IMG/VR virus record: IMGVR_UViG_2548876955_000006
Span: 1-9,179 of that record
Length of the DNA stretch: 9,179 nt
Reading direction: 5' to 3' (one strand)
From: a virus
Lineage: Duplodnaviria > Heunggongvirae > Uroviricota > Caudoviricetes
Shown: positions 1-9,179 of the stretch, one piece after another
Position numbering within the stretch: position 1 is the stretch's first letter
How the letters are laid out: each line of letters opens with the position of its first letter
Translations under genes and position numbers: made by a program
Notes under the pieces: generated by a model
The model's database searches: none
Seen by the model: the letters and a program-made list of their open reading frames with translations, nothing else
Told to the model about the DNA's origin: nothing

Positions 1-33
1 AAAGTTAACCATCTGTGCGGCGATGTTTTTCAT
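1..33 (-). CDS. P: Replication protein P, 5' end only (runs off the window edge)
   Basis: Reverse complement of 1-33 reads ATG AAA AAC ATC GCC GCA CAG ATG GTT AAC TTT = MKNIAAQMVNF, the lambda P N-terminus as I recall it. Its ATG (31-33) overlaps the O stop (30-32) in an ATGA arrangement, as in lambda. Confidence 0.85.
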   Translation of the reverse strand, partial: MKNIAAQMVNF

Positions 34-929
34 AAATCCACCCCGTAAATCCAGTCAGTGTTTGTCAGGTCGAGTTTTGGTTTGCTGGCTGTCACGCCTG
101 CCTGTTGCTTGTTACGGTTGATTTCGAGCTGGGTCCACTTGTCGCGGAGTTTGGCCGGGCTCAGCACGTTACCGGACCAGAAGTTGTCCTGGCATGCCCA
201 GCGGAACAGTACGCACATGTCGCGATGGTTACGTCCGTCACGTTCACGCATCAGGCGGATATCGTTAGCCCACCCTGCAAAATTCGGTTTTCTGGCTGAT
301 GGCGCGATGGTCTTCACCATGTCAAACATCCACTCTGCGGCGGTCAGGTCTTCTGCTGTTCCCCACTTGCTGCCGCTCTGAATTGCAGCATCCGGTTTAA
401 CCACAGAAAGATCGTTTTCTGGCTGGTCAGAGGATTCGCCAGAATTCTCGGACGAATAATCTTTTCTTTTTTCTTTTGTAATAGTGTCTTTTGTGTCCCC
501 CTGTTTTGAGGGATAGCAATCCCCCAATTTGAGGGATGTTTTATCCCTCGTTTTAGGGGATTTTCCCTCGTTTTGAGGGATACACCATTCTGAGATGTTT
601 TTATTTGGTCCAAACATGCCGCCTTGCTGCTTGATAATATTCATTCTGACGAGTTCTAACTTGGCTTCATTGCACCGTTTGACGGGTAACTTTGTAATCT
701 CGCTAAGTTGAGAATCGGTGATTCTGTCCATTGGTTTATTCCACCCATAGGTTTTACGCAGAATGGCAAGCAGCACTTTAAACTGTCGCTTGGTCAGATC
801 TGCGCCTGAATAAGCCTCAAGCAGCATATTTGATAGTCTGGCGTAACCATCATCGAGATCTGCCACATTACGCTCCTGTCCGGCAAAGTTACCTCTGCCG
901 AAGTTGAGTATTTTTGCTGTATTTGTCAT
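30..929 (-). CDS. O: Replication initiator protein O (lambda O-like)
   Basis: 299-aa ORF MTNTAKILNFGRGNFAGQERNVADLDDGYARLSNMLLEAY...DWIYGVDL, matching lambda O from memory. AGGAG Shine-Dalgarno upstream of the ATG at 927-929. Contains the ori iterons internally. Confidence 0.95.
   Translation of the reverse strand: MTNTAKILNFGRGNFAGQERNVADLDDGYARLSNMLLEAYSGADLTKRQFKVLLAILRKTYGWNKPMDRITDSQLSEITKLPVKRCNEAKLELVRMNIIKQQGGMFGPNKNISEWCIPQNEGKSPKTRDKTSLKLGDCYPSKQGDTKDTITKEKRKDYSSENSGESSDQPENDLSVVKPDAAIQSGSKWGTAEDLTAAEWMFDMVKTIAPSARKPNFAGWANDIRLMRERDGRNHRDMCVLFRWACQDNFWSGNVLSPAKLRDKWTQLEINRNKQQAGVTASKPKLDLTNTDWIYGVDL
498..583. repeat. Origin of replication: four iterons (O-binding sites) inside the O gene, with adjacent AT-rich stretch (approx 440-480)
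   Basis: Four ~18-19 bp repeats of the form (A)TCCCTC-N-TTGAGGGA(T): ccctgttttgagggat, atcccccaatttgagggat, atccctcgttttaggggat, ttccctcgttttgagggat. Lambda ori has this architecture. Confidence 0.85.
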
Positions 930-932
930 AAT
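904..932 (+). promoter_or_regulatory. Po promoter for oop RNA
   Basis: -35 TTGAGT (904-909), 17-bp spacer, -10 CATAAT (927-932), placing the start about 7 nt downstream at the oop 5' end. Confidence 0.5.
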
Positions 933-939
933 GACTCCT

Positions 940-1016
940 GTTGATAGATCCAGTAATGACCTCAGAACTCCATCTGGATTTGTTCAGAACGCTCGGTTGC
1001 CGCCGGGCGTTTTTTA
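940..1016 (+). ncRNA. oop: oop antisense RNA (antisense to the cII 3' end), with intrinsic terminator
   Basis: Sequence gttgatagatccagtaatgacctcagaactccatctggatttgttcagaacgctcggttgccgccgggcgtttttt matches lambda oop RNA as recalled. It is 77 nt, ends in a GC-rich hairpin plus T6, and overlaps the 3' end of cII on the opposite strand. Confidence 0.8.
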
Positions 1017-1255
1017 TTGGTGAGAATCGCAGCAACTTGTCGCGCCAATCGAGCCATGTCGTCGTCAACGACCCCCCATTCAAGAACAGCAAGCAGCATT
1101 GAGAACTTTGGAATCCAGTCTCTCTTCCACCTGCTGATCTGCGACTTATCAACTCCCACAGCTTCCGCTGTCTTCTCAGTTCCAAGCATTGCGATTTTGT
1201 TAAGCAACGCACTCTCGATTCGTAGAGCCTCGTTGCGTTTGTTTGCACGAACCAT
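962..1255 (-). CDS. cII: Transcriptional activator CII
   Basis: The internal Met of ORF 962..1315 gives the 97-aa MVRANKRNEALRIESALLNKIAMLGTEKTAEAVGVDKSQISRWKRDWIPKFSMLLAVLEWGVVDDDMARLARQVAAILTNKKRPAATERSEQIQMEF, identical to lambda CII as recalled. AAGGAA Shine-Dalgarno upstream of the ATG at 1253-1255. Confidence 0.95.
   Translation of the reverse strand: MVRANKRNEALRIESALLNKIAMLGTEKTAEAVGVDKSQISRWKRDWIPKFSMLLAVLEWGVVDDDMARLARQVAAILTNKKRPAATERSEQIQMEF
1233..1246 (+). promoter_or_regulatory. CII-binding site TTGC-N6-TTGC of the pRE promoter (would drive plus-strand transcription toward cI)
   Basis: ttgcgtttgtttgc lies just inside the 5' end of cII on the opposite strand, the lambda pRE arrangement. 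Confidence 0.6.
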
Positions 1256-1334
1256 ATGTAAGTATTTCCTTAGATAACAATTGATTGAATGTATGCAAAT
1301 AAATGCATACACCATAGGTGTGGTTTAATTTGAT

Positions 1335-1367
1335 GCCCTTTTTCAGGGCTGGGATGTGTAAGAGCGG
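1335..1367 (-). promoter_or_regulatory. nutR (boxA + boxB) N-utilisation site
   Basis: Minus strand reads CGCTCTTACACA (boxA, 1356-1367) followed by GCCCTGAAAAAGGGC (boxB stem-loop, 1335-1349), between cro and cII. Confidence 0.8.
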
Positions 1368-1374
1368 GAATGTC

Positions 1375-1590
1375 TTAAGCGGCTTTGTGTTCCGGCGGGA
1401 ACACGTCATCAAGACTGACTTCTGCGCCTAACTTGTTTAGGCACTCAACAAGAGCACGGCATGTTTTAAGGTCTGGGAAGCGACGACCAGATTCCCAATG
1501 TCCGATAGCTCCCTGTGTGCATCCAACTGCCTTAGCAAGTGTTGTTTGAGAGATATTCAGTGACTCTCGATATTTTCGTAGGTTGCTCAT
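1375..1590 (-). CDS. cro: Cro-like repressor (HTH, XRE-type; not lambda Cro)
   Basis: 71-aa MSNLRKYRESLNISQTTLAKAVGCTQGAIGHWESGRRFPDLKTCRALVECLNKLGAEVSLDDVFPPEHKAA, from the internal ATG of ORF 1375..1761 with a GGAGG Shine-Dalgarno. Helix-turn-helix signature. Divergent from cI and followed by nutR-cII. Confidence 0.85.
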   Translation of the reverse strand: MSNLRKYRESLNISQTTLAKAVGCTQGAIGHWESGRRFPDLKTCRALVECLNKLGAEVSLDDVFPPEHKAA

Positions 1591-1701
1591 ATGCCCTCCA
1601 TAGTAACCATGAAACAATAATACGATATGTACTTTTAGAATGCAAACAAAAAATACATCTTGTGCATGGATGGTTTTAGTACAGAGCGTAATAATAAGGG
1701 T
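1591..1701. promoter_or_regulatory. OR operator region with divergent PR (minus) and PRM (plus) promoters
   Basis: 111-bp cro-cI intergenic region. PR candidate on the minus strand: -35 TTTGCA (complement of 1641-1646), 18-bp spacer, -10 TATTAT (complement of 1617-1622). Operator-like sites sharing the core RTACA-N-CGTA: 1620-1634 (tacgatatgtact) and 1678-1692 (agtacagagcgtaat), with a weaker middle site near 1650-1664. Confidence 0.5.
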
Positions 1702-2361
1702 ATGAAAATGAAATGGTATGAACTGGCTAGATCCAGAATGAAAGAGCTCGGCATAACTCAAGAGAAGTTAGCTGAAGAGCTTGGTATGACGCAGGGTGGA
1801 ATTGGTCACTGGTTGCGCGGATCTCGTCATCCATCTCTTGACGAGATTGGTGTGGTGTTTAAATACCTTGGTATTGATAACGTCTCATTCAACCACGACG
1901 GTACATTTTCACCTGTTGGCGAATACTCATCTGCCCCCGTTAAAAAACAATATGAGTACCCTGTTTTTTCTCATGTTCAGGCCGGGATGTTCTCGCCTGA
2001 GCTTAGAACCTTTACCAAAGGTGATGCGGAGAGATGGGTCAGCACAACCAAAAAAGCCAGTGATTGTGCGTTCTGGCTTGAAGTTGAAGGTAATTCCATG
2101 ACCGCGCCAACAGGATCCAAGCCAAGCTTTCCTGACGGGATGTTAATTCTCGTTGACCCTGAGCAGGCTGTTGAGCCAGGTGATTTCTGCATAGCCAGAC
2201 TTGGTGGTGACGAGTTTACCTTCAAGAAACTGATCAGGGATAGCGGTCAGGTGTTCCTACAGCCACTAAACCCGCAATATCCAATGATTCCATGCAATGA
2301 TAGCTGTTCCGTAGTAGGGAAAGTTATCGCCAGCCAGTGGCCTGAAGAGACATTTAGTTAA
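1702..2361 (+). CDS. cI: CI-type phage repressor (N-terminal HTH plus LexA/S24-like autocleavage domain)
   Basis: 219 aa from ATG 1702 ([37 protein letters not shown]...), with AAGGG Shine-Dalgarno. The C-terminal domain carries an Ala-Gly cleavage site (VQAGMF), the catalytic Ser (GNSM) and Lys (FKKL), and matches the lambda cI C-terminal domain as recalled. The N-terminal domain is non-lambda. Confidence 0.9.
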
Positions 2362-2392
2362 CAGCCTCACCACTCTAAAGCACACAACAATA

Positions 2393-2421
2393 ACCCGACC
2401 TTAGTGTCGGGTTTTCTTTTT
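2393..2421 (+). terminator. Intrinsic terminator downstream of cI
   Basis: Hairpin acccgac-cttagt-gtcgggt followed by TTTTCTTTTT. Confidence 0.6.
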
Positions 2422-2440
2422 CCAAAATATAAACCCACTA

Positions 2441-2521
2441 AATACAAAGCGTTATAAAAAACTAATTATATTTAGAACATTTTGTATTGACTCAATAAAG
2501 TACAAATCGTACTATTTAGCC
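2441..2521 (+). promoter_or_regulatory. OL operators and PL promoter
   Basis: -35 TTGACT (2487-2492), 17-bp spacer, -10 TACTAT (2510-2515), start near 2522 (ATCAGCAGG, as for the lambda PL transcript). Operator-like sites of the same family as OR: 2442-2455 atacaaagcgttat, 2474-2488 (complement aatacaaaatgttct), 2499-2513 agtacaaatcgtact. Confidence 0.55.
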
Positions 2522-2554
2522 ATCAGCAGGACGCACTAACCACCATGAAGGTGA

Positions 2555-2585
2555 TGCTCTTAAAAATTAAGCCCTGAAGAAGGGC
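2555..2585 (+). promoter_or_regulatory. nutL (boxA + boxB)
   Basis: TGCTCTTAAAAATTAA followed by GCCCTGAAGAAGGGC (boxB hairpin, 2571-2585) in the PL leader, matching lambda nutL apart from one boxA position. Confidence 0.85.
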
Positions 2586-2742
2586 AGCATTCAAAGCAGA
2601 AGGCTTTGGGGTGTGTGATACGAAACGAAGCATTGGCCGGAAGTGCGAATCCGGATTAGCTGCAAATGAGCCAATCGGGGGTGTTTTCGTTCAGGACTAC
2701 GACTCACACACACCACCAAAGCTAACTGACAAGAGAATCCAG

Positions 2743-4565
<1,823 letters not shown>

Positions 4566-4635
4566 TGGAGCACCTGTGTTGTTCTGAGGTGAGCATATCA
4601 CCTCTGTTCAGGTGGCCAAATTCAGTGTGCCACTA

Positions 4636-4893
<258 letters not shown>

Positions 4894-4926
4894 TTAAAAG
4901 ACAGGCATACTAATAAACACTGCACT

Positions 4927-4954
4927 GTGTATTCATTCCAACGAGTGAATACAC
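4927..4954. promoter_or_regulatory. Perfect 9-bp inverted repeat GTGTATTCA-N10-TGAATACAC (possible regulator binding site or RNA hairpin)
   Basis: Read directly from the sequence. No adjacent T-tract on either strand, so it is unlikely to be an intrinsic terminator. Confidence 0.35.
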
Positions 4955-5016
4955 GGAGCAATGTCGCTCGTAACTAAACAGGAGCCGACTTGTTCTGATT
5001 ATTGGAAATCTTCTTT

Positions 5017-5040
5017 GCCCTCCAGTGTGAGGGCTTTTTT
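5017..5040 (+). terminator. Intrinsic terminator on the plus strand upstream of cIII (tL-like)
   Basis: GCCCTC-cagtgt-GAGGGC hairpin followed by TTTTTT. The T-tract is only on the plus strand. Confidence 0.6.
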
Positions 5041-5106
5041 ATATGCATACCAATAACGCTTCACGAGAGGCGTTTTCGTTATGCAATCAAATATAAGGAG
5101 TTACCC

Positions 5107-5241
5107 ATGATGCACTTTCAGCTCGCGGGTAGCGGCGTCATGTCCGCTTTCTACCCGCTCGAATCTGAATTATCACGCCGAGTTAAACAATTAATCAGAG
5201 CAGCAAAGAAACAACTGGAGGCGTTATGCGCAATGAAATAA
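5107..5241 (+). CDS. cIII: CIII-like protein (putative FtsH inhibitor)
   Basis: 44-aa MMHFQLAGSGVMSAFYPLESELSRRVKQLIRAAKKQLEALCAMK with AAGGAG Shine-Dalgarno. Resembles the lambda CIII pattern (M.Y.IAG...ESLLERI.RKL) and occupies the cIII position before kil. The ORF-track start at 5002 is an upstream over-extension. Confidence 0.6.
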   Translation: MMHFQLAGSGVMSAFYPLESELSRRVKQLIRAAKKQLEALCAMK

Positions 5242-5378
5242 CCATCAATCACCAGATGCTTCGTGCAGCACAAAACAAAGCAGTAATAGCCAGATTTATT
5301 GGTGATTCCAAAATGTGGCTTGAAGCAAATAAAGCGATGAAATCAGCTATCAACCTTCCGTGGTATCGCAGGAAATGA
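5226..5378 (+). CDS. kil: Kil-like protein (host cell-division inhibitor)
   Basis: 50-aa MRNEITINHQMLRAAQNKAVIARFIGDSKMWLEANKAMKSAINLPWYRRK, absent from the ORF track because it is short. Its start overlaps the cIII 3' end, as kil does in lambda. The IARFIGD-KM segment resembles lambda Kil from memory. Confidence 0.5.
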   Translation: MRNEITINHQMLRAAQNKAVIARFIGDSKMWLEANKAMKSAINLPWYRRK

Positions 5379-5453
5379 GTTTTACAGATAACTGGTCAGA
5401 CGAAGAATTCATTCGTCAGATGAAAGAATTAATCGGTAACGAAGGAGATATTC

Positions 5454-5624
5454 ATGTCACTTGCAACCACCGTGAAGGAGAGCAAGTTACAGAGACGCAT
5501 GTACACGCAGCAGGCGTTAATGTATCGCCAGAAGGGAGATCGTGAAGGTGTTCGCGTCTTTTTAAATGCGGCAAAGACCGAAGTATTAAATCAGCGTTAT
5601 TTCCTTGGTCCATGTCCATTCTGA
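5454..5624 (+). CDS. Hypothetical small protein (56 aa) at the position lambda gam occupies
   Basis: MSLATTVKESKLQRRMYTQQALMYRQKGDREGVRVFLNAAKTEVLNQRYFLGPCPF. Strong Shine-Dalgarno AAGGAG 6 nt before the ATG. Its stop precedes the SSAP gene by 8 nt. No family recognised. Confidence 0.45.
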   Translation: MSLATTVKESKLQRRMYTQQALMYRQKGDREGVRVFLNAAKTEVLNQRYFLGPCPF

Positions 5625-5632
5625 GGTGAATT

Positions 5633-6340
5633 ATGGATTTGAATAAATTCGATGAGCCATTCAGCCCTGAAGATATCGAATGGCGAATACAGCAAAGCGG
5701 TAAAACACGCGATGGCAAGGTGTGGGCTATGGTGCTGGCTTATGTCACGAACAGGGCAATCATGAAACGCCTGGACGATGTTTGCGGCAAAGCAGGATGG
5801 CGCAATGAATACCGCGATATTCCCAACAACGGAGGCGTTGAATGCGGCATATCAATCAGGATTGATTCCGAATGGGTAACCAAATGGGATGCTGCTGAAA
5901 ACACGCAGGTAGAAGCCGTCAAAGGTGGTCGTTCCGGCGCAATGAAGCGCGCTGCCGTTCAGTGGGGAATCGGTCGGTATCTGTATAACCTTGAGGAAGG
6001 TTTCGCACAAACATCTCTCGATAAAAAGCAGGGGTGGCACAGGGCAAAACTGAAGGATGGAACAGGATTTTACTGGCTCCCTCCATCGCTGCCGGGATGG
6101 GCAATCCCAGCATCAGATAACAAACCATCACCAGAAAATACCAACCAGAAATCTCCATCGGTTGACTGCGAACAAATCCTGAAAGACTTCAGCGATTATG
6201 CATCAACAGAAACTGACAAGAAAAAACTCATCGAGCGTTATCAGCGTGACTGGCAATTAATGGCTGGCAACGAGGAGGCACAGGCTAAATGCGTTCAGGT
6301 AATGAACATCAGAGTTAACGAACTAAAACAGGCGGCATAA
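5633..6340 (+). CDS. Rad52-like single-strand annealing protein (Sak-type recombinase)
   Basis: 235 aa with GAGGTG Shine-Dalgarno. Motifs typical of the phage Rad52/Sak family (...RDGKVWAMVLAYV...GGVECGISIRI...GAMKRAAVQWGIGRYLY). Occupies the position of lambda bet. Confidence 0.7.
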   Translation: MDLNKFDEPFSPEDIEWRIQQSGKTRDGKVWAMVLAYVTNRAIMKRLDDVCGKAGWRNEYRDIPNNGGVECGISIRIDSEWVTKWDAAENTQVEAVKGGRSGAMKRAAVQWGIGRYLYNLEEGFAQTSLDKKQGWHRAKLKDGTGFYWLPPSLPGWAIPASDNKPSPENTNQKSPSVDCEQILKDFSDYASTETDKKKLIERYQRDWQLMAGNEEAQAKCVQVMNIRVNELKQAA

Positions 6341-6808
6341 ATGTCTCACTTGGACGGAATTATTAAAAGATTCGAGTCCAGCTACAAAGTTAATGAAACA
6401 ACAGGTTGCTGGGAGTCTACCTATTCAAAAAACAAAGGAGGATACACAAAATTTGTAGCCTTTGGCGTAACAATGCTTTCTCATCGGGTTGCTTTTGAGC
6501 TTTATCACTCCCCCATTCCATCTGGGAAGATGGTTTGCCACAAATGCGATAACCCATGCTGCGTTAATCCTGAACATCTCTTTTTAGGTAGCGCGCAAGA
6601 AAACATGGACGACAAGATAGCAAAAGGAAGGCATCGTGGAGCCAAGAAAGGTCATGCTCATCATGGTGCAAAATTAACAGAGTGGCAGGTTATAGAAATT
6701 AGGAAAAGACTCTCTGAAAAAGAGAGTCAGTACAAGATAGCAAAAGACATGGGTGTATCTCAATCAATTATAAGCAACATAAAAACTGGCAAGAGGTGGA
6801 GCAAATGA
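6341..6808 (+). CDS. HNH endonuclease (HNH_3-like) with C-terminal HTH
   Basis: 155 aa with the HNH signature ...[45 protein letters not shown]... The ATG directly follows the SSAP stop, and its own stop overlaps the ssb ATG. Confidence 0.85.
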
Positions 6809-7311
6809 GTTCTCGCGGGATAAATAAGGTGATTATCCTTGGTCGGGTAGGACAAGACCCGGAAGTTCGATACTCACCATCAGGAACAGCGTTCGCTAAC
6901 CTGACAATAGCCACGTCAGAACAATGGCGAGATAAAAATACTGGCGAGCAAAAGGAATTGACTGAATGGCATCGTGTTGCTGTATCCGGGAAACTGGCTG
7001 AGGTCGTGGGGCAGTATGTGAAAAAAGGTGATCAGATTTATTTCGAGGGAATGCTGAGAACCAGAAAGTGGAAAGACCAGTCAGGGCAAGACCGTTACAC
7101 AACCGAGGTTCATGTCGGAATTAATGGCGTGATGCAAATGCTTGGCGGCATTGGCGACAGCAAACAACAAGCAGCCAGCAGGCAATCACAGAAGCCACAG
7201 CAGCAATCATCACCAGCACAACACAACGAACCTCCGATGGATTTTGACGACGATATACCCTTTGCACCAGTAACTCTCCCCTTCCCTCGTCACGCTATTC
7301 ACGCAATTTAA
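6805..7311 (+). CDS. ssb: Single-stranded DNA-binding protein
   Basis: 168 aa [44 protein letters not shown]...[15 protein letters not shown]...[18 protein letters not shown]..., with the acidic C-terminal tail [11 protein letters not shown]. Closely resembles E. coli SSB as recalled. Confidence 0.9.
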
Positions 7312-7324
7312 TCAGGAGAAAATC

Positions 7325-7618
7325 ATGCCAGCGCCTCTGTATGGTGCGGATGACCCGCGCCGCTGTTCCGGCAATTCCGTATCGGAGGTGCTGGATAAAT
7401 TCAGAAAAAACTACGATCGGATAATGTCGCTACCGCAGGAAACGAAAGAGGAAAAGGAATTTCGCCATTGTATATGGCTTGCAGAGAAAGAAGAACGCGA
7501 GCGAATTTACCAGACATCAATCCGACCATTCCGCAAAGCCACATATACCCACTTCCCTGAAATTGACCCGCGCCTGCGTAATTATCGATCACGCTATGGC
7601 GCTATCAGTAATGACTGA
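7325..7618 (+). CDS. Hypothetical protein (97 aa)
   Basis: ORF with Shine-Dalgarno CAGGAGAAA 6 nt upstream of the ATG. No recognised domain. Part of the co-directional early-left operon. Confidence 0.5.
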
Positions 7619-7628
7619 GGAATTTACC

Positions 7629-7793
7629 ATGAGAGGACTTGCATACAATCCCGGCATTCTTCCGGCAGAAATGATTATTCGCCAACGCGTAAAGCCAATG
7701 CCATCGAGAGAGGAATTGCTTAAGAGAAATTCTTCTCCGTCAGTGAATCAAAACAAATATCTGAATGCGATGTGGCGGAGTGGGAAGAAATGA
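7629..7793 (+). CDS. Hypothetical small protein (54 aa)
   Basis: [60 protein letters not shown] Shine-Dalgarno 7 nt upstream. An alternative ATG at 7611 has no Shine-Dalgarno. Its stop overlaps the next ATG (ATGA). Confidence 0.45.
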
Positions 7794-8227
7794 AACGAAT
7801 GACACTAATTGAGATGGATGGATTTCTGAAAGGTAAATGCATCCCATGTGATTTAAAGGTTAACGAAACAAATGCTGAATATCTGGTACGCAAATTTGCT
7901 GAAGCGGAGGCCAAGTGCGCGGCGCTGGCGGCGGAGAATGCGGAGCTGAAGTCTGTGCACCCTCAACCATTCGGAGCAGAGATGATGAAGGCTCTTGATG
8001 AGTATGAGAAGCATCAGGATGAAGTGCCAGAGACTGGAATGCTCAATGCATTTTTCATCTTGCGCGACAGCATCCGTGTTGAAACCCCAGCCACCGACTC
8101 TTTCCTGTCTGAAGTGCGGGCGCAGGGGGTTGAGATGATGCGCGAACACCCATCAATCAAACTTTGCTCTTTGACGCACATATGTGATGAGTTAGCCGCC
8201 CAGCTTCGCAAAGGAGGCAACCAGTGA
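7790..8227 (+). CDS. Hypothetical protein (145 aa), possibly Ead/Ea22-like
   Basis: [54 protein letters not shown]... with a coiled-coil-like Ala/Glu-rich segment. The Ea22-like assignment is a weak recollection, not a verified match. Confidence 0.5.
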
Positions 8228-8307
8228 CTGGACATGCAGCAATCCTCGACATGTGCTGTGGCAGTCGCATGTTCTGGTTAGATAAGAATGACGAACGGGC
8301 GAGATAA
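8224..8307 (+). pseudogene. Possible truncated gene remnant (27 codons) with a SAM-methyltransferase motif-I-like sequence
   Basis: GTG-initiated [27 protein letters not shown] then stop. ILDMCCGS resembles motif I (hhDhxxGxG-like) of methyltransferases. Downstream frames are closed by multiple stops. Confidence 0.3.
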
Positions 8308-8357
8308 GCGATCGGTTAAGTGCTATAGTAATGCGCTTTTGTATTTATGGAGTGAAT

Positions 8358-9056
8358 ATGAAAAATATCCTACTGGCATCATTGTTAGTGGCATCGCCGG
8401 GTGCATTTGCAGCCAGCTTTGACTGCCAAAAGGCTTCGACAGCAATCGAACATAAAATCTGCGATAACGAACGTCTGTCAAAATTAGACGAACAGCTTAG
8501 CTCTGCCTATTCTAGTGCCCTCAAAGGAAACCCAGAGAACGCAGACACCCTAAAAATGGTTCAACGTCAGTGGGTAAATATGCGTGGAAAACTCACTGAT
8601 AATAAGGCTCTGGAGCTGGCTTATCTTATCCAAATTAATGGCCTCAAAGGTTTGGGGAGTTCAGTCAGCGTAACAGCGGCCAATGACATACCCACGTCGG
8701 CGCAGAAACATTCTGAAGAGCAGGAAGAAACAAGTAAGGCAGAAGCTAAGTCGGTCAAGAACGGCAATGAGCTAACCTTAGAGTCATTCCGAGCTAAATA
8801 TGTAGAAGTAGATGGTGAGTATTACAGCACGACATCCATTCCTAGAGGCAGTTCGTTCTTGTTCACTTGCGCCAGTCGTATTGCTGATGACCAAGTGAAT
8901 ATTTGGAAGAAACAGGCAGCCAAAGAGGGCAAAATCGACTTATTCTTTGAGGTTGAGAATCACTTACACACGGCTATGTTGAACGCCAATTTTCAGAAGT
9001 TGAATTCAGACCCTGCCAAAAGAGGTATTTGTAATCTGATTAACGCAGTGCCGTAA
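8358..9056 (+). CDS. Secreted DUF1311 / LprI-like (lysozyme-inhibitor family N-terminal domain) protein
   Basis: 232 aa from ATG 8358 with GGAG Shine-Dalgarno. Signal peptide MKNILLASLLVASPGAFA|AS. DUF1311-type pattern FDCQKASTAIEHKICDNERLSKLDEQLSSAYSSALKG...LKMVQRQWVNMR. C-terminal half of unknown function. Followed by a strong terminator. Confidence 0.7.
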   Translation: MKNILLASLLVASPGAFAASFDCQKASTAIEHKICDNERLSKLDEQLSSAYSSALKGNPENADTLKMVQRQWVNMRGKLTDNKALELAYLIQINGLKGLGSSVSVTAANDIPTSAQKHSEEQEETSKAEAKSVKNGNELTLESFRAKYVEVDGEYYSTTSIPRGSSFLFTCASRIADDQVNIWKKQAAKEGKIDLFFEVENHLHTAMLNANFQKLNSDPAKRGICNLINAVP

Positions 9057-9065
9057 GTAAATTTA

Positions 9066-9096
9066 GGGCCACAGTTGTGGCCTTAAATATTTTTTC
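9066..9096 (+). terminator. Intrinsic terminator after the DUF1311 gene
   Basis: GGGCCAC-agtt-GTGGCC hairpin followed by TTAAATATTTTTT. Confidence 0.7.
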
Positions 9097-9179
9097 AGCC
9101 TTTTCTTATTTGTAATAAGCAGTACTTGGTAGTGCTTATAAAACAGAATAAAAAACATATGACTTTGGCGATTACCCAG

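Follow-up and report, generated by a model that had tools for sequence, protein, structure and literature searches.

The stretch of DNA analyzed here (the window: 9,179 nucleotides of IMG/VR record IMGVR_UViG_2548876955_000006, positions 1 to 9,179) is part of an Escherichia coli lambdoid prophage. On its plus strand, the early-left operon contains a gene for a free-standing HNH endonuclease, lodged between the gene for an annealing protein and the gene for a single-stranded DNA-binding protein (SSB, encoded by ssb). An earlier note made from the sequence had grouped these three genes as a recombination module standing in place of lambda exo-bet-gam, and had offered two explanations for the HNH gene: a mobile homing-type insertion or the nuclease partner of the annealing protein. 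The features that bear on this choice are the following.

5633..6340, plus strand: Rad52/Sak-type annealing protein of 235 aa (PF04098, E 7e-26, residues 4-136; phrog_1097, E 6e-130)
6086..6337, plus strand: C-terminal domain of the annealing protein, aa 152-235 (BLASTP against the Erf protein of locus L008)
6341..6808, plus strand: free-standing HNH (His-Me finger) endonuclease of 155 aa (PF13392, E 1e-13)
6344..6822, plus strand: inserted cassette relative to HNH-less alleles (alignments)
6805..7311, plus strand: phage SSB of 168 aa, HK75-type allele (PF00436, E 2e-36; TIGR00621)
6808..6822, plus strand: recoded patch, ssb codons 2-6 (comparison with HNH-less ssb)
7264..7311, plus strand: 15-aa C-terminal extension of the SSB, following the canonical DFDDDIPF tip
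7325..7618, plus strand: Abc2 anti-RecBCD protein (PF11043, E 6e-64; phrog_656)

The open reading frames (ORFs) of the three genes lie at 5633-6340, 6341-6808 and 6805-7311, and the tight coupling described in the earlier note was borne out by both junctions between them. There is no nucleotide between the stop codon of the annealing gene and the ATG of the HNH gene (...GCGGCATAA followed by ATGTCT, that is, TAA followed by ATG), and the HNH stop codon overlaps the ssb start in an ATGA (...GGAGCAAATGAGT). The first possible ssb start is GTG 6796, and alignment with HNH-less relatives matches their ssb start to ATG 6805. The Pfam matches listed above agree with the endonuclease and SSB assignments, the former joined by a weak C-terminal helix-turn-helix (HTH). 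The GC content of the HNH gene is 40.8%, compared with 48.4% and 48.5% in its flanks. A scan of positions 5300-7700 for promoters and terminators gave signals at chance level only.

We found that the HNH gene is an optional cassette. HNH DNA is present in 41 of 5426 complete E. coli genomes, with an identity of at least 99% in all of them. The annealing-gene/ssb junction occurs in 407 E. coli genomes and carries the HNH insert in 40 of these (about 10%). The gene is thus far from universally present and syntenic, and the search for presence/absence polymorphism that the earlier note had proposed gave a positive answer. HNH-less E. coli matches span 604 bp as against 1068 bp, a length exactly 464 bp shorter, and in HK75, mEpX2, Sf6, Bas106, ES18 and E. 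coli ET245 the stop codon of the annealing gene is followed directly by the ssb ATG. The HNH gene was found in prophages differing in immunity region, replication genes and integration site, and beside two ssb alleles with a mutual identity of only about 71%. It assorts independently of a DnaQ-like exonuclease gene and an Sf6 gp26-type endonuclease gene, both described below. HNH+ and HNH- annealing-gene/ssb/abc2 modules lie together in the chromosome of strain E2348/69 (NC_011601.1, at about 726 kb and 1047 kb; L189, L190). Megablast of the HNH DNA against the phage collection returned no match, and at that identity the gene was found in prophages and IMG/VR contigs only. Because a search of the phage collection for HNH-less counterparts of the Erf-type (Cronobacter/Salmonella) lineage gave weak partial matches only, the comparison of filled and empty sites rests on the E. 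coli lineage. Of the two explanations offered earlier, the evidence favors a mobile homing-type insertion, and a nuclease partner of the annealing protein is not supported.

Alignment of filled and empty alleles placed the left edge of the cassette at a shared ATG and its right edge at a shared AAATAAGGTGAT. In the cassette (6344..6822), 479 nt stand in place of 15 nt (GCAAGCAGAGGCGTA), so that the filled allele is 464 nt longer. The start of the HNH gene takes over the ancestral ssb ATG together with the ribosome-binding region upstream of it, and the last codons of the annealing gene hold that ribosome-binding region. At the other end of the cassette, the last codons of the HNH gene (AAG AGG TGG AGC AAA TGA) place a Shine-Dalgarno-like AGGTGG 5 bases before the new ssb ATG, and the C-terminal K-R-W codons (AAG AGG TGG) are conserved. 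Judging from these signals, AGGTGG and the ATGA overlap would re-couple translation of ssb.

The cassette ends in a patch of recoded sequence. Codons 2-6 of ssb read AGT TCT CGC GGG ATA in HNH+ alleles and GCA AGC AGA GGC GTA in HNH-less alleles, so that 10 of the 15 nt differ; the protein changes from ASRGV to SSRGI, with the serine and the arginine switching codon families. This state is uniform, one form being found in every HNH-less allele and the other in every HNH+ allele. When the window ssb was compared with the HNH-less ssb of E2348/69, 10 of 507 nt were different and all of them fell at nt 4-16, a clustering with P at most 6e-14 under uniform scatter. The same patch is carried by both of the ssb alleles that share only about 71% identity. 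Among IMG/VR sequences, the HNH gene lies directly upstream of the patch in 28 of 28 cases, and the patch was joined directly to the annealing-gene stop in none (0 cases), with at least 120 occurrences of the empty, HNH-less junction in the same database. The recoding is not confined to E. coli, as the Cronobacter and Citrobacter HNH lineages, 74% identical, share AGT TCT CGY. In the few alleles compared, no HNH-linked single-nucleotide polymorphism was seen outside the patch. The patch creates the ATGA overlap and, as far as its sequence suggests, presumably destroys the target of the enzyme.

The neighbors of more distant HNH genes were also compared. We retrieved 160 family loci, from which L100 and L101 (100%-identical E. 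coli HNH gene) were set aside, leaving 158. Relatives at 51-74% identity come from Cronobacter/Enterobacteriaceae, Citrobacter, a Vibrio lentus phage, Shewanella and metagenomic contigs. The HNH stop codon overlaps the start of the downstream gene in every such relative examined, and this downstream gene is a Pfam-confirmed SSB in six of seven lineages. In P0017, a 51% relative, the downstream ORF is truncated by the contig end and was judged by its SSB-like N-terminus (MSKRGINRVILVGNIGKDPE), not by Pfam. The upstream gene varies, being of the Rad52 type, ERF, RdgC with FtsK_gamma, Sipho_Gp157 or of unknown families. Among loci at 36-50% identity, 2 of 158 adjoin ssb (downstream), both from Rhodobacterales; a scan of genome contigs gave distant relatives only (36-48%), which served as an outgroup for context. 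The constant partner of the HNH gene is the ssb start, not any one annealing-protein family. A constant ssb combined with a varying upstream gene therefore marks these genes as one clade of a generic mobile family specialized on one target, and a gene that had co-evolved with a particular annealing protein would be expected to show a different pattern.

Phages commonly carry HNH homing endonucleases, and HNH_3 (PF13392) represents the zinc-binding loop of homing endonucleases. The window protein also has a weak match to PF05551 (zf-His_Me_endon) and one to HTH_38 (E 0.0016, below the gathering score). Across 16 sequences, down to 51% identity, residues H48, R49, C66, H67, C69, D70, C74, N76, H79 and N88 are invariant, so the protein has by its residues an intact His-Me (HNH) catalytic core and is predicted to be active. 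An AlphaFold (AF2) model built from the 16-sequence alignment (mean pLDDT 81.7) comprises an N-terminal nuclease, a low-confidence or disordered linker (aa 100-109) and a C-terminal three-helix HTH (aa 114-149); the last of these is a putative separate DNA-binding domain joined by the linker. Because single-sequence searches of the PDB with the HNH protein gave no meaningful match, the model was used in a fold search, in which the best PDB match was I-HmuI (1u3e), over the whole length, and I-PpoI came next. Between HNH lineages, synonymous sites are saturated and dN is about 0.2, with a dN/dS of 0.07 for the Cronobacter/Citrobacter pair. The HNH gene is under purifying selection. A role as an HNH accessory factor of packaging, of the type described by Kala et al. 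(2014), was rejected on position, as the gene sits between the annealing gene and ssb and not by the terminase or portal genes.

The architecture of the locus, the polymorphism, the linked patch, the association with ssb across the clade, the fold, the purifying selection and the contrast in composition argue, at a probability of roughly 0.68, for the HNH gene being a free-standing homing-type endonuclease cassette aimed at the 5' end of ssb, a selfish passenger rather than the nuclease of the module. A promoter-less HNH cassette has inserted exactly at the ssb start codon of a P22/Sf6/HK75-type module, made up of small ORFs in the arf position, a Rad52-type annealing protein, an SSB and Abc2, and we infer the following course of events. 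Transcription from pL would express the enzyme after prophage induction or infection. Resembling I-HmuI and MobE, the enzyme would nick or cut the HNH-less allele carried by related phages or prophages in the same cell, at the point where the annealing-gene stop meets the ssb start (...AAACAGGCGGCATAAATGGCAAGCAGAGGCGTAAATAAGG...) or close to it. With the HNH+ genome as template, repair would then copy in the cassette together with the patch, an 'intronless homing' that the phage's own recombination module would aid. The HNH+ allele itself would be immune to the enzyme because 464 bp interrupt its site and 10 of 15 positions are recoded.

Several points weigh against this reading. Cleavage, nicking and biased inheritance are predictions, and the patch is the sole pointer to the target site. 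Free-standing endonucleases often cut hundreds of bp away from their own gene, and cleavage here may accordingly take place elsewhere than at the junction. Even in the absence of endonuclease activity, the cassette could spread by lambdoid mosaic recombination, within the 98%-identical annealing gene and at the conserved NKVI codons of ssb, and part of the recoding (codon 2 beginning with A) is forced by the ATGA overlap. Stable adjacency of HNH and ssb from Vibrio to E. coli, together with translational coupling, would also fit a partnership with the SSB. Finally, the degenerate HNH copies catalogued amount to one truncated 119-aa variant (P0007).

What the rest of the operon encodes bears on the opposite reading, in which HNH works for the module. 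The sole Pfam match of the 5633-6340 product was Rad52_Rad22 (PF04098), in agreement with the Rad52/Sak-type identity proposed in the earlier note; no Erf, RecT or Red-beta match was found in Pfam, and the 'Erf-like' label attached to its PHROG is a family name only. A single-sequence PDB search with this protein gave no solved relative and no meaningful match. The 235-aa protein has an N-terminal Rad52-like annealing domain, and annealing activity is predicted from it. Its gene is 98-99% nucleotide-identical to those of HK75, mEpX2 and Sf6, and the window ssb is 99.8% identical to the ssb of HK75 and ET245 past codon 8. The set of annealing gene, ssb and abc2 is also found in HK75, mEpX2, mEp235, Sf6, ES18 and many other phages.

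The module is non-Red, as had been claimed: no ORF between kil and 8227 matches lambda Exo/YqaJ, Red-beta/RecT or Gam, and lambda Red was rejected on gene position and family assignments. It does occupy the position equivalent to lambda gam-bet-exo, with cIII (PF08134) and Kil (PF06301) encoded immediately 5'. It is also correct that the window contains no exonuclease, but the earlier note had overlooked Abc2 (PF11043), whose gene starts 13 nt after ssb in the same operon as the annealing protein. The functional module consists of annealing protein, SSB and Abc2, as in P22, HK620, Sf6 and HK75, and the view of HNH as one of three parts replacing exo-bet-gam was not supported. Because the window proteins match neither Erf (PF04404) nor Arf (PF17585) and the SSB occupies the abc1 slot, the module is the Sf6/HK75 variant and not the P22 gene set; it is of the P22/Sf6/HK75 type, a kind already catalogued. 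As far as the account of Murphy (2000) given in PMC5928155 goes, Abc2 of P22 and HK620 binds RecC and turns host RecBCD into an end-processor for the annealing protein, and end processing by Abc2-modified RecBCD is drawn from PMC12315714 as well. By analogy with P22, ends in the window system would be processed by host RecBCD modified by Abc2, in which case no exonuclease gene would be needed in the window.

Two observations on variation within these modules may be added. A gene for a DnaQ-like 3'-5' exonuclease (PF16473, Rv2179c-like) is absent from the window; in many relatives it occurs, as an optional gene, between ssb and abc2 (L001 3312-3860, L007 7289-7837, L008 4974-5522). Residues 152-235 of the annealing protein share 37% identity over 84 aa (BLASTP, E 1e-15) with the Erf protein of L008 (3746-3997). 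Annealing proteins of the Rad52 type and of the Erf type (Cronobacter/Salmonella-like prophages) both end in ELKQAA; at the DNA level, ...AAACAGGCGGCRTAA is conserved in both types of loci, the last 15 nt or so being near-identical. The shared C-terminal domain probably binds a partner protein, and the shared C-terminus of about 84 aa suggests a shuffled partner-interaction domain plus a conserved junction sequence before ssb.

A 2025 survey (PMC12315714) describes lambdoid Rec modules as combinations of annealing protein, SSB, nuclease and anti-RecBCD protein and names Abc2 and HNH genes among the parts. The alternative that best survives, although an unlikely one, has HNH as a working part of this kind, a nickase or endonuclease making or processing ends, either as nuclease partner or as initiator of recombination-dependent replication. 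It would account for the tight packing and translational coupling of the gene with its neighbors, the annealing gene and ssb, and for an adjacency to ssb that is conserved across distant hosts under strong purifying selection; the survey, moreover, counts HNH as a fourth nuclease type of these modules and as likely legitimate members. However, HNH is absent from about 90% of near-identical modules, including those of the plaque-forming phages HK75, mEpX2 and Sf6. Abc2 is present and would already provide RecBCD-based end processing by the P22 analogy (PMC5928155), and HNH co-occurs freely with the optional DnaQ-like exonuclease rather than substituting for it. The partner that HNH keeps is the ssb start while the annealing-protein family changes, its fold and architecture are those of site-specific homing enzymes, and a module role leaves both the recoded patch and the compositional difference unexplained.

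Two further proposals start from the enzyme's presumed target. In E. coli K-12 the chromosomal ssb (L188 1126-1152) matches the HNH-less phage ssb of HK75 (L002 2830-2856) in 24 of 27 nt at the 5' end, and the host gene could be a near-cognate site on account of this identity. The broader proposal is a long shot: the HNH lineage, conserved from Vibrio phages to E. coli prophages, would be specialized on the opening codons of bacterial-type ssb genes and on induction would cut both the ssb of rival prophages and the essential ssb of the host, while the phage expressed a recoded, immune ssb of its own, as a device for homing, competition and host takeover seated in the recombination module. Somewhat harder to credit is that the cassette is more a weapon than a pure parasite, used against rival phages or prophages by cutting their ssb at the 5' end (marker exclusion), possibly also that of the host chromosome, while the phage supplies its own immune ssb. 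Such use would suit the resemblance of host and HNH-less ssb set beside the recoding of the HNH-linked allele, as well as the presence of HNH+ and HNH- prophages together in E2348/69, and homing endonucleases of SPO1/SP82 and T4 do give competitive advantage or marker exclusion (PMC2988022). Its target range is nevertheless speculative, recognition of the host site may be lost through its three mismatches, cutting of the host chromosome is conjecture, and the idea extends the homing model rather than excluding it.

Least probable of all is that one old insertion left HNH behind as an inactive or domesticated relic, now passively carried and shuffled among prophages by ordinary lambdoid mosaic recombination: homologous exchange in the highly conserved flanks (98% in the annealing gene) can alone move the cassette, and E. 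coli copies at least 99% identical are compatible with a single recent origin, but invariant catalytic and zinc residues across lineages despite saturated synonymous sites and a dN/dS of 0.07 are not expected of a relic, two ssb alleles that diverge right after a shared stretch of 12 nt have the cassette boundary in common, and the insertion point is kept in several genera while upstream genes change.

Other endonuclease genes are found around ssb. In Sf6 and Bas106, ssb ends in ...DIPF and a stop codon and is followed by an unrelated gene for a 159-aa gp26-type endonuclease. The 15 extra residues of the window SSB correspond to the C-terminus of the gp26-type endonuclease in phages where that gene follows ...DIPF (window 7264-7311; L003, Sf6, 4254-4743; L007, M9, about 7230-7280). 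The gp26-type gene looks like a second endonuclease cassette, at the ssb 3' end, with filled and empty alleles of both ssb types. Sf6 gp26 was rejected as a homolog of the window HNH protein, as BLASTP gave no similarity and there was no Pfam match. In ES18, gp47 (L019 8214-8735, minus strand) is a 35%-identical HNH paralog located after ssb and flanked on either side by spacers, within AT-rich intergenic DNA. It was rejected as the same gene, being a paralog in a different slot, and constitutes a third endonuclease slot around ssb. The ES18 HNH gene has been suggested as a likely module member (PMC12315714), and the evidence on the window HNH does not bear directly on it. Were the HNH lineage to attack rival and host ssb alike, phage ssb would, together with the gp26- and ES18-type slots, be a hotspot with three sites for selfish nucleases.

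The remaining features of the window are as follows.

30-929, minus strand: O-type replication gene (TIGR01610)
962-1315, minus strand: ORF in the cII position (gene order, and CII-family genes annotated there in related prophages)
1660-2361, plus strand: ORF in the cI position (LexA-family/S24 repressors annotated at the same place in related prophages)
Plus strand: N antiterminator (N36 domain)
3397-4601, minus strand: IS3-family transposase ORFs, orfA at 4263-4601 and orfB at 3397-4236
5107..5241, plus strand: cIII (PF08134, E 3.5e-28; ORF listed from 5002, the match being its aa 37-73)
5226..5378, plus strand: kil (PF06301, E 1.7e-20; phrog_2055)
5360-5545 and 5454-5624, plus strand: two overlapping small ORFs in the position of P22 arf (phrog_2123, E 3e-39; phrog_1723, E 4.5e-34)

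The cIII-kil pair lies directly 5' of the module region and identifies the early-left operon, which carries further genes 3' of Abc2. The two small ORFs have no Pfam match even at E 5, Phage_Arf included; their PHROG families carry the label 'recombinase', and homologs are annotated in mEpX2, Sf6 and HK75. An IS3-family insertion sequence (IS) lies between N and cIII, in the opposite orientation to the pL operon, and resembles ISEc52 as annotated in strain Ecol_AZ159. An inverted-repeat search revealed no terminal inverted repeats for it. The IS may have a polar effect on how the recombination genes are expressed. The early-left region encodes at its distal end a 241-aa protein (8331-9056) whose N-terminus resembles a signal peptide and which contains a weak LprI domain (lysozyme inhibitor); it may be a moron.

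Tightly packed HNH genes have been treated as probably functional module members (PMC12315714). The population data on this HNH lineage contradict that view: it is an optional cassette with a linked patch, and its ssb is constant while annealing proteins change. What is new here is evidence for a Rec-module HNH as a mobile passenger that appears to be aimed at the ssb start, by a mechanism that would be homing. If this is true, module classifications and recombineering toolkits derived from such operons should omit the HNH gene, and the locus would give a clean case, amenable to experiment, of how intronless homing works in temperate enterobacterial phages. Filled and empty sites exist naturally in HK75, Sf6 and the E2348/69 prophages, the ssb genes of the E2348/69 pair differing only by the 10-nt patch. 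As a short sequence with precise bounds, the junction would also be a candidate for the site that a new site-specific nickase or endonuclease recognizes.

Among known systems, P22 (arf, erf, abc1, abc2) resembles the window in the position of its genes after cIII-kil, in Abc2 and in having an annealing protein without a dedicated 5'-3' exonuclease (PMC5928155). The window differs from it in that the annealing protein is of the Rad52/Sak type and not Erf, the SSB takes the abc1 position as in HK620, and no Pfam Arf match exists. The Rec modules of Sf6, HK75, mEpX2 and ES18 are closer, sharing the annealing gene (98-99%), ssb alleles, Abc2 and the cIII-kil context, but these phages are without the window's HNH gene. 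In contrast to the PMC12315714 survey, where HNH genes are probable module members, our evidence speaks for a mobile passenger.

T4 SegG, a free-standing endonuclease encoded between genes 32 and 59, targets gene 32, the SSB gene of T4 (PMC2988022). Like the window HNH gene, segG adjoins an SSB gene that is also its target (presumed, in our case), and expression signals for the downstream SSB gene lie inside the endonuclease gene (PMC2988022). Unlike the window enzyme, SegG is a GIY-YIG and not an HNH protein, it cuts at a distance from its own gene, and gp32 is unrelated to the bacterial-type SSB. I-HmuI of Bacillus phage SPO1 (1U3E) matches the window HNH model over its whole length (Foldseek E 3.6e-4, probability 1.00), and both have an N-terminal His-Me nuclease followed by a C-terminal helix-turn-helix. 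Their identity is only 17%, however, with a TM-score of 0.40 for this elongated two-domain protein. Furthermore, I-HmuI is intron-encoded in a DNA polymerase gene whereas the window HNH is free-standing, with a Cys/His zinc site (PF05551-like) in its nuclease domain.

T4 MobE, an HNH nickase with a DNA-binding domain, is encoded by a promoter-less cassette whose start overlaps the upstream stop (PMC2988022). Located between nrdA and nrdB, mobE is comparable to the window HNH gene in being promoter-less, in lying inside an operon between conserved DNA-metabolism genes and in its sporadic occurrence among relatives; in both, a start that abuts or overlaps the upstream stop suggests translational coupling (PMC2988022). 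The two differ in setting, the window HNH belonging to a temperate lambdoid prophage with ssb as its presumed target and MobE to a T-even phage with nrdB. The window cassette, with an activity that is predicted, also overlaps the start of the downstream gene and carries with it a recoded 5' end of the target gene.

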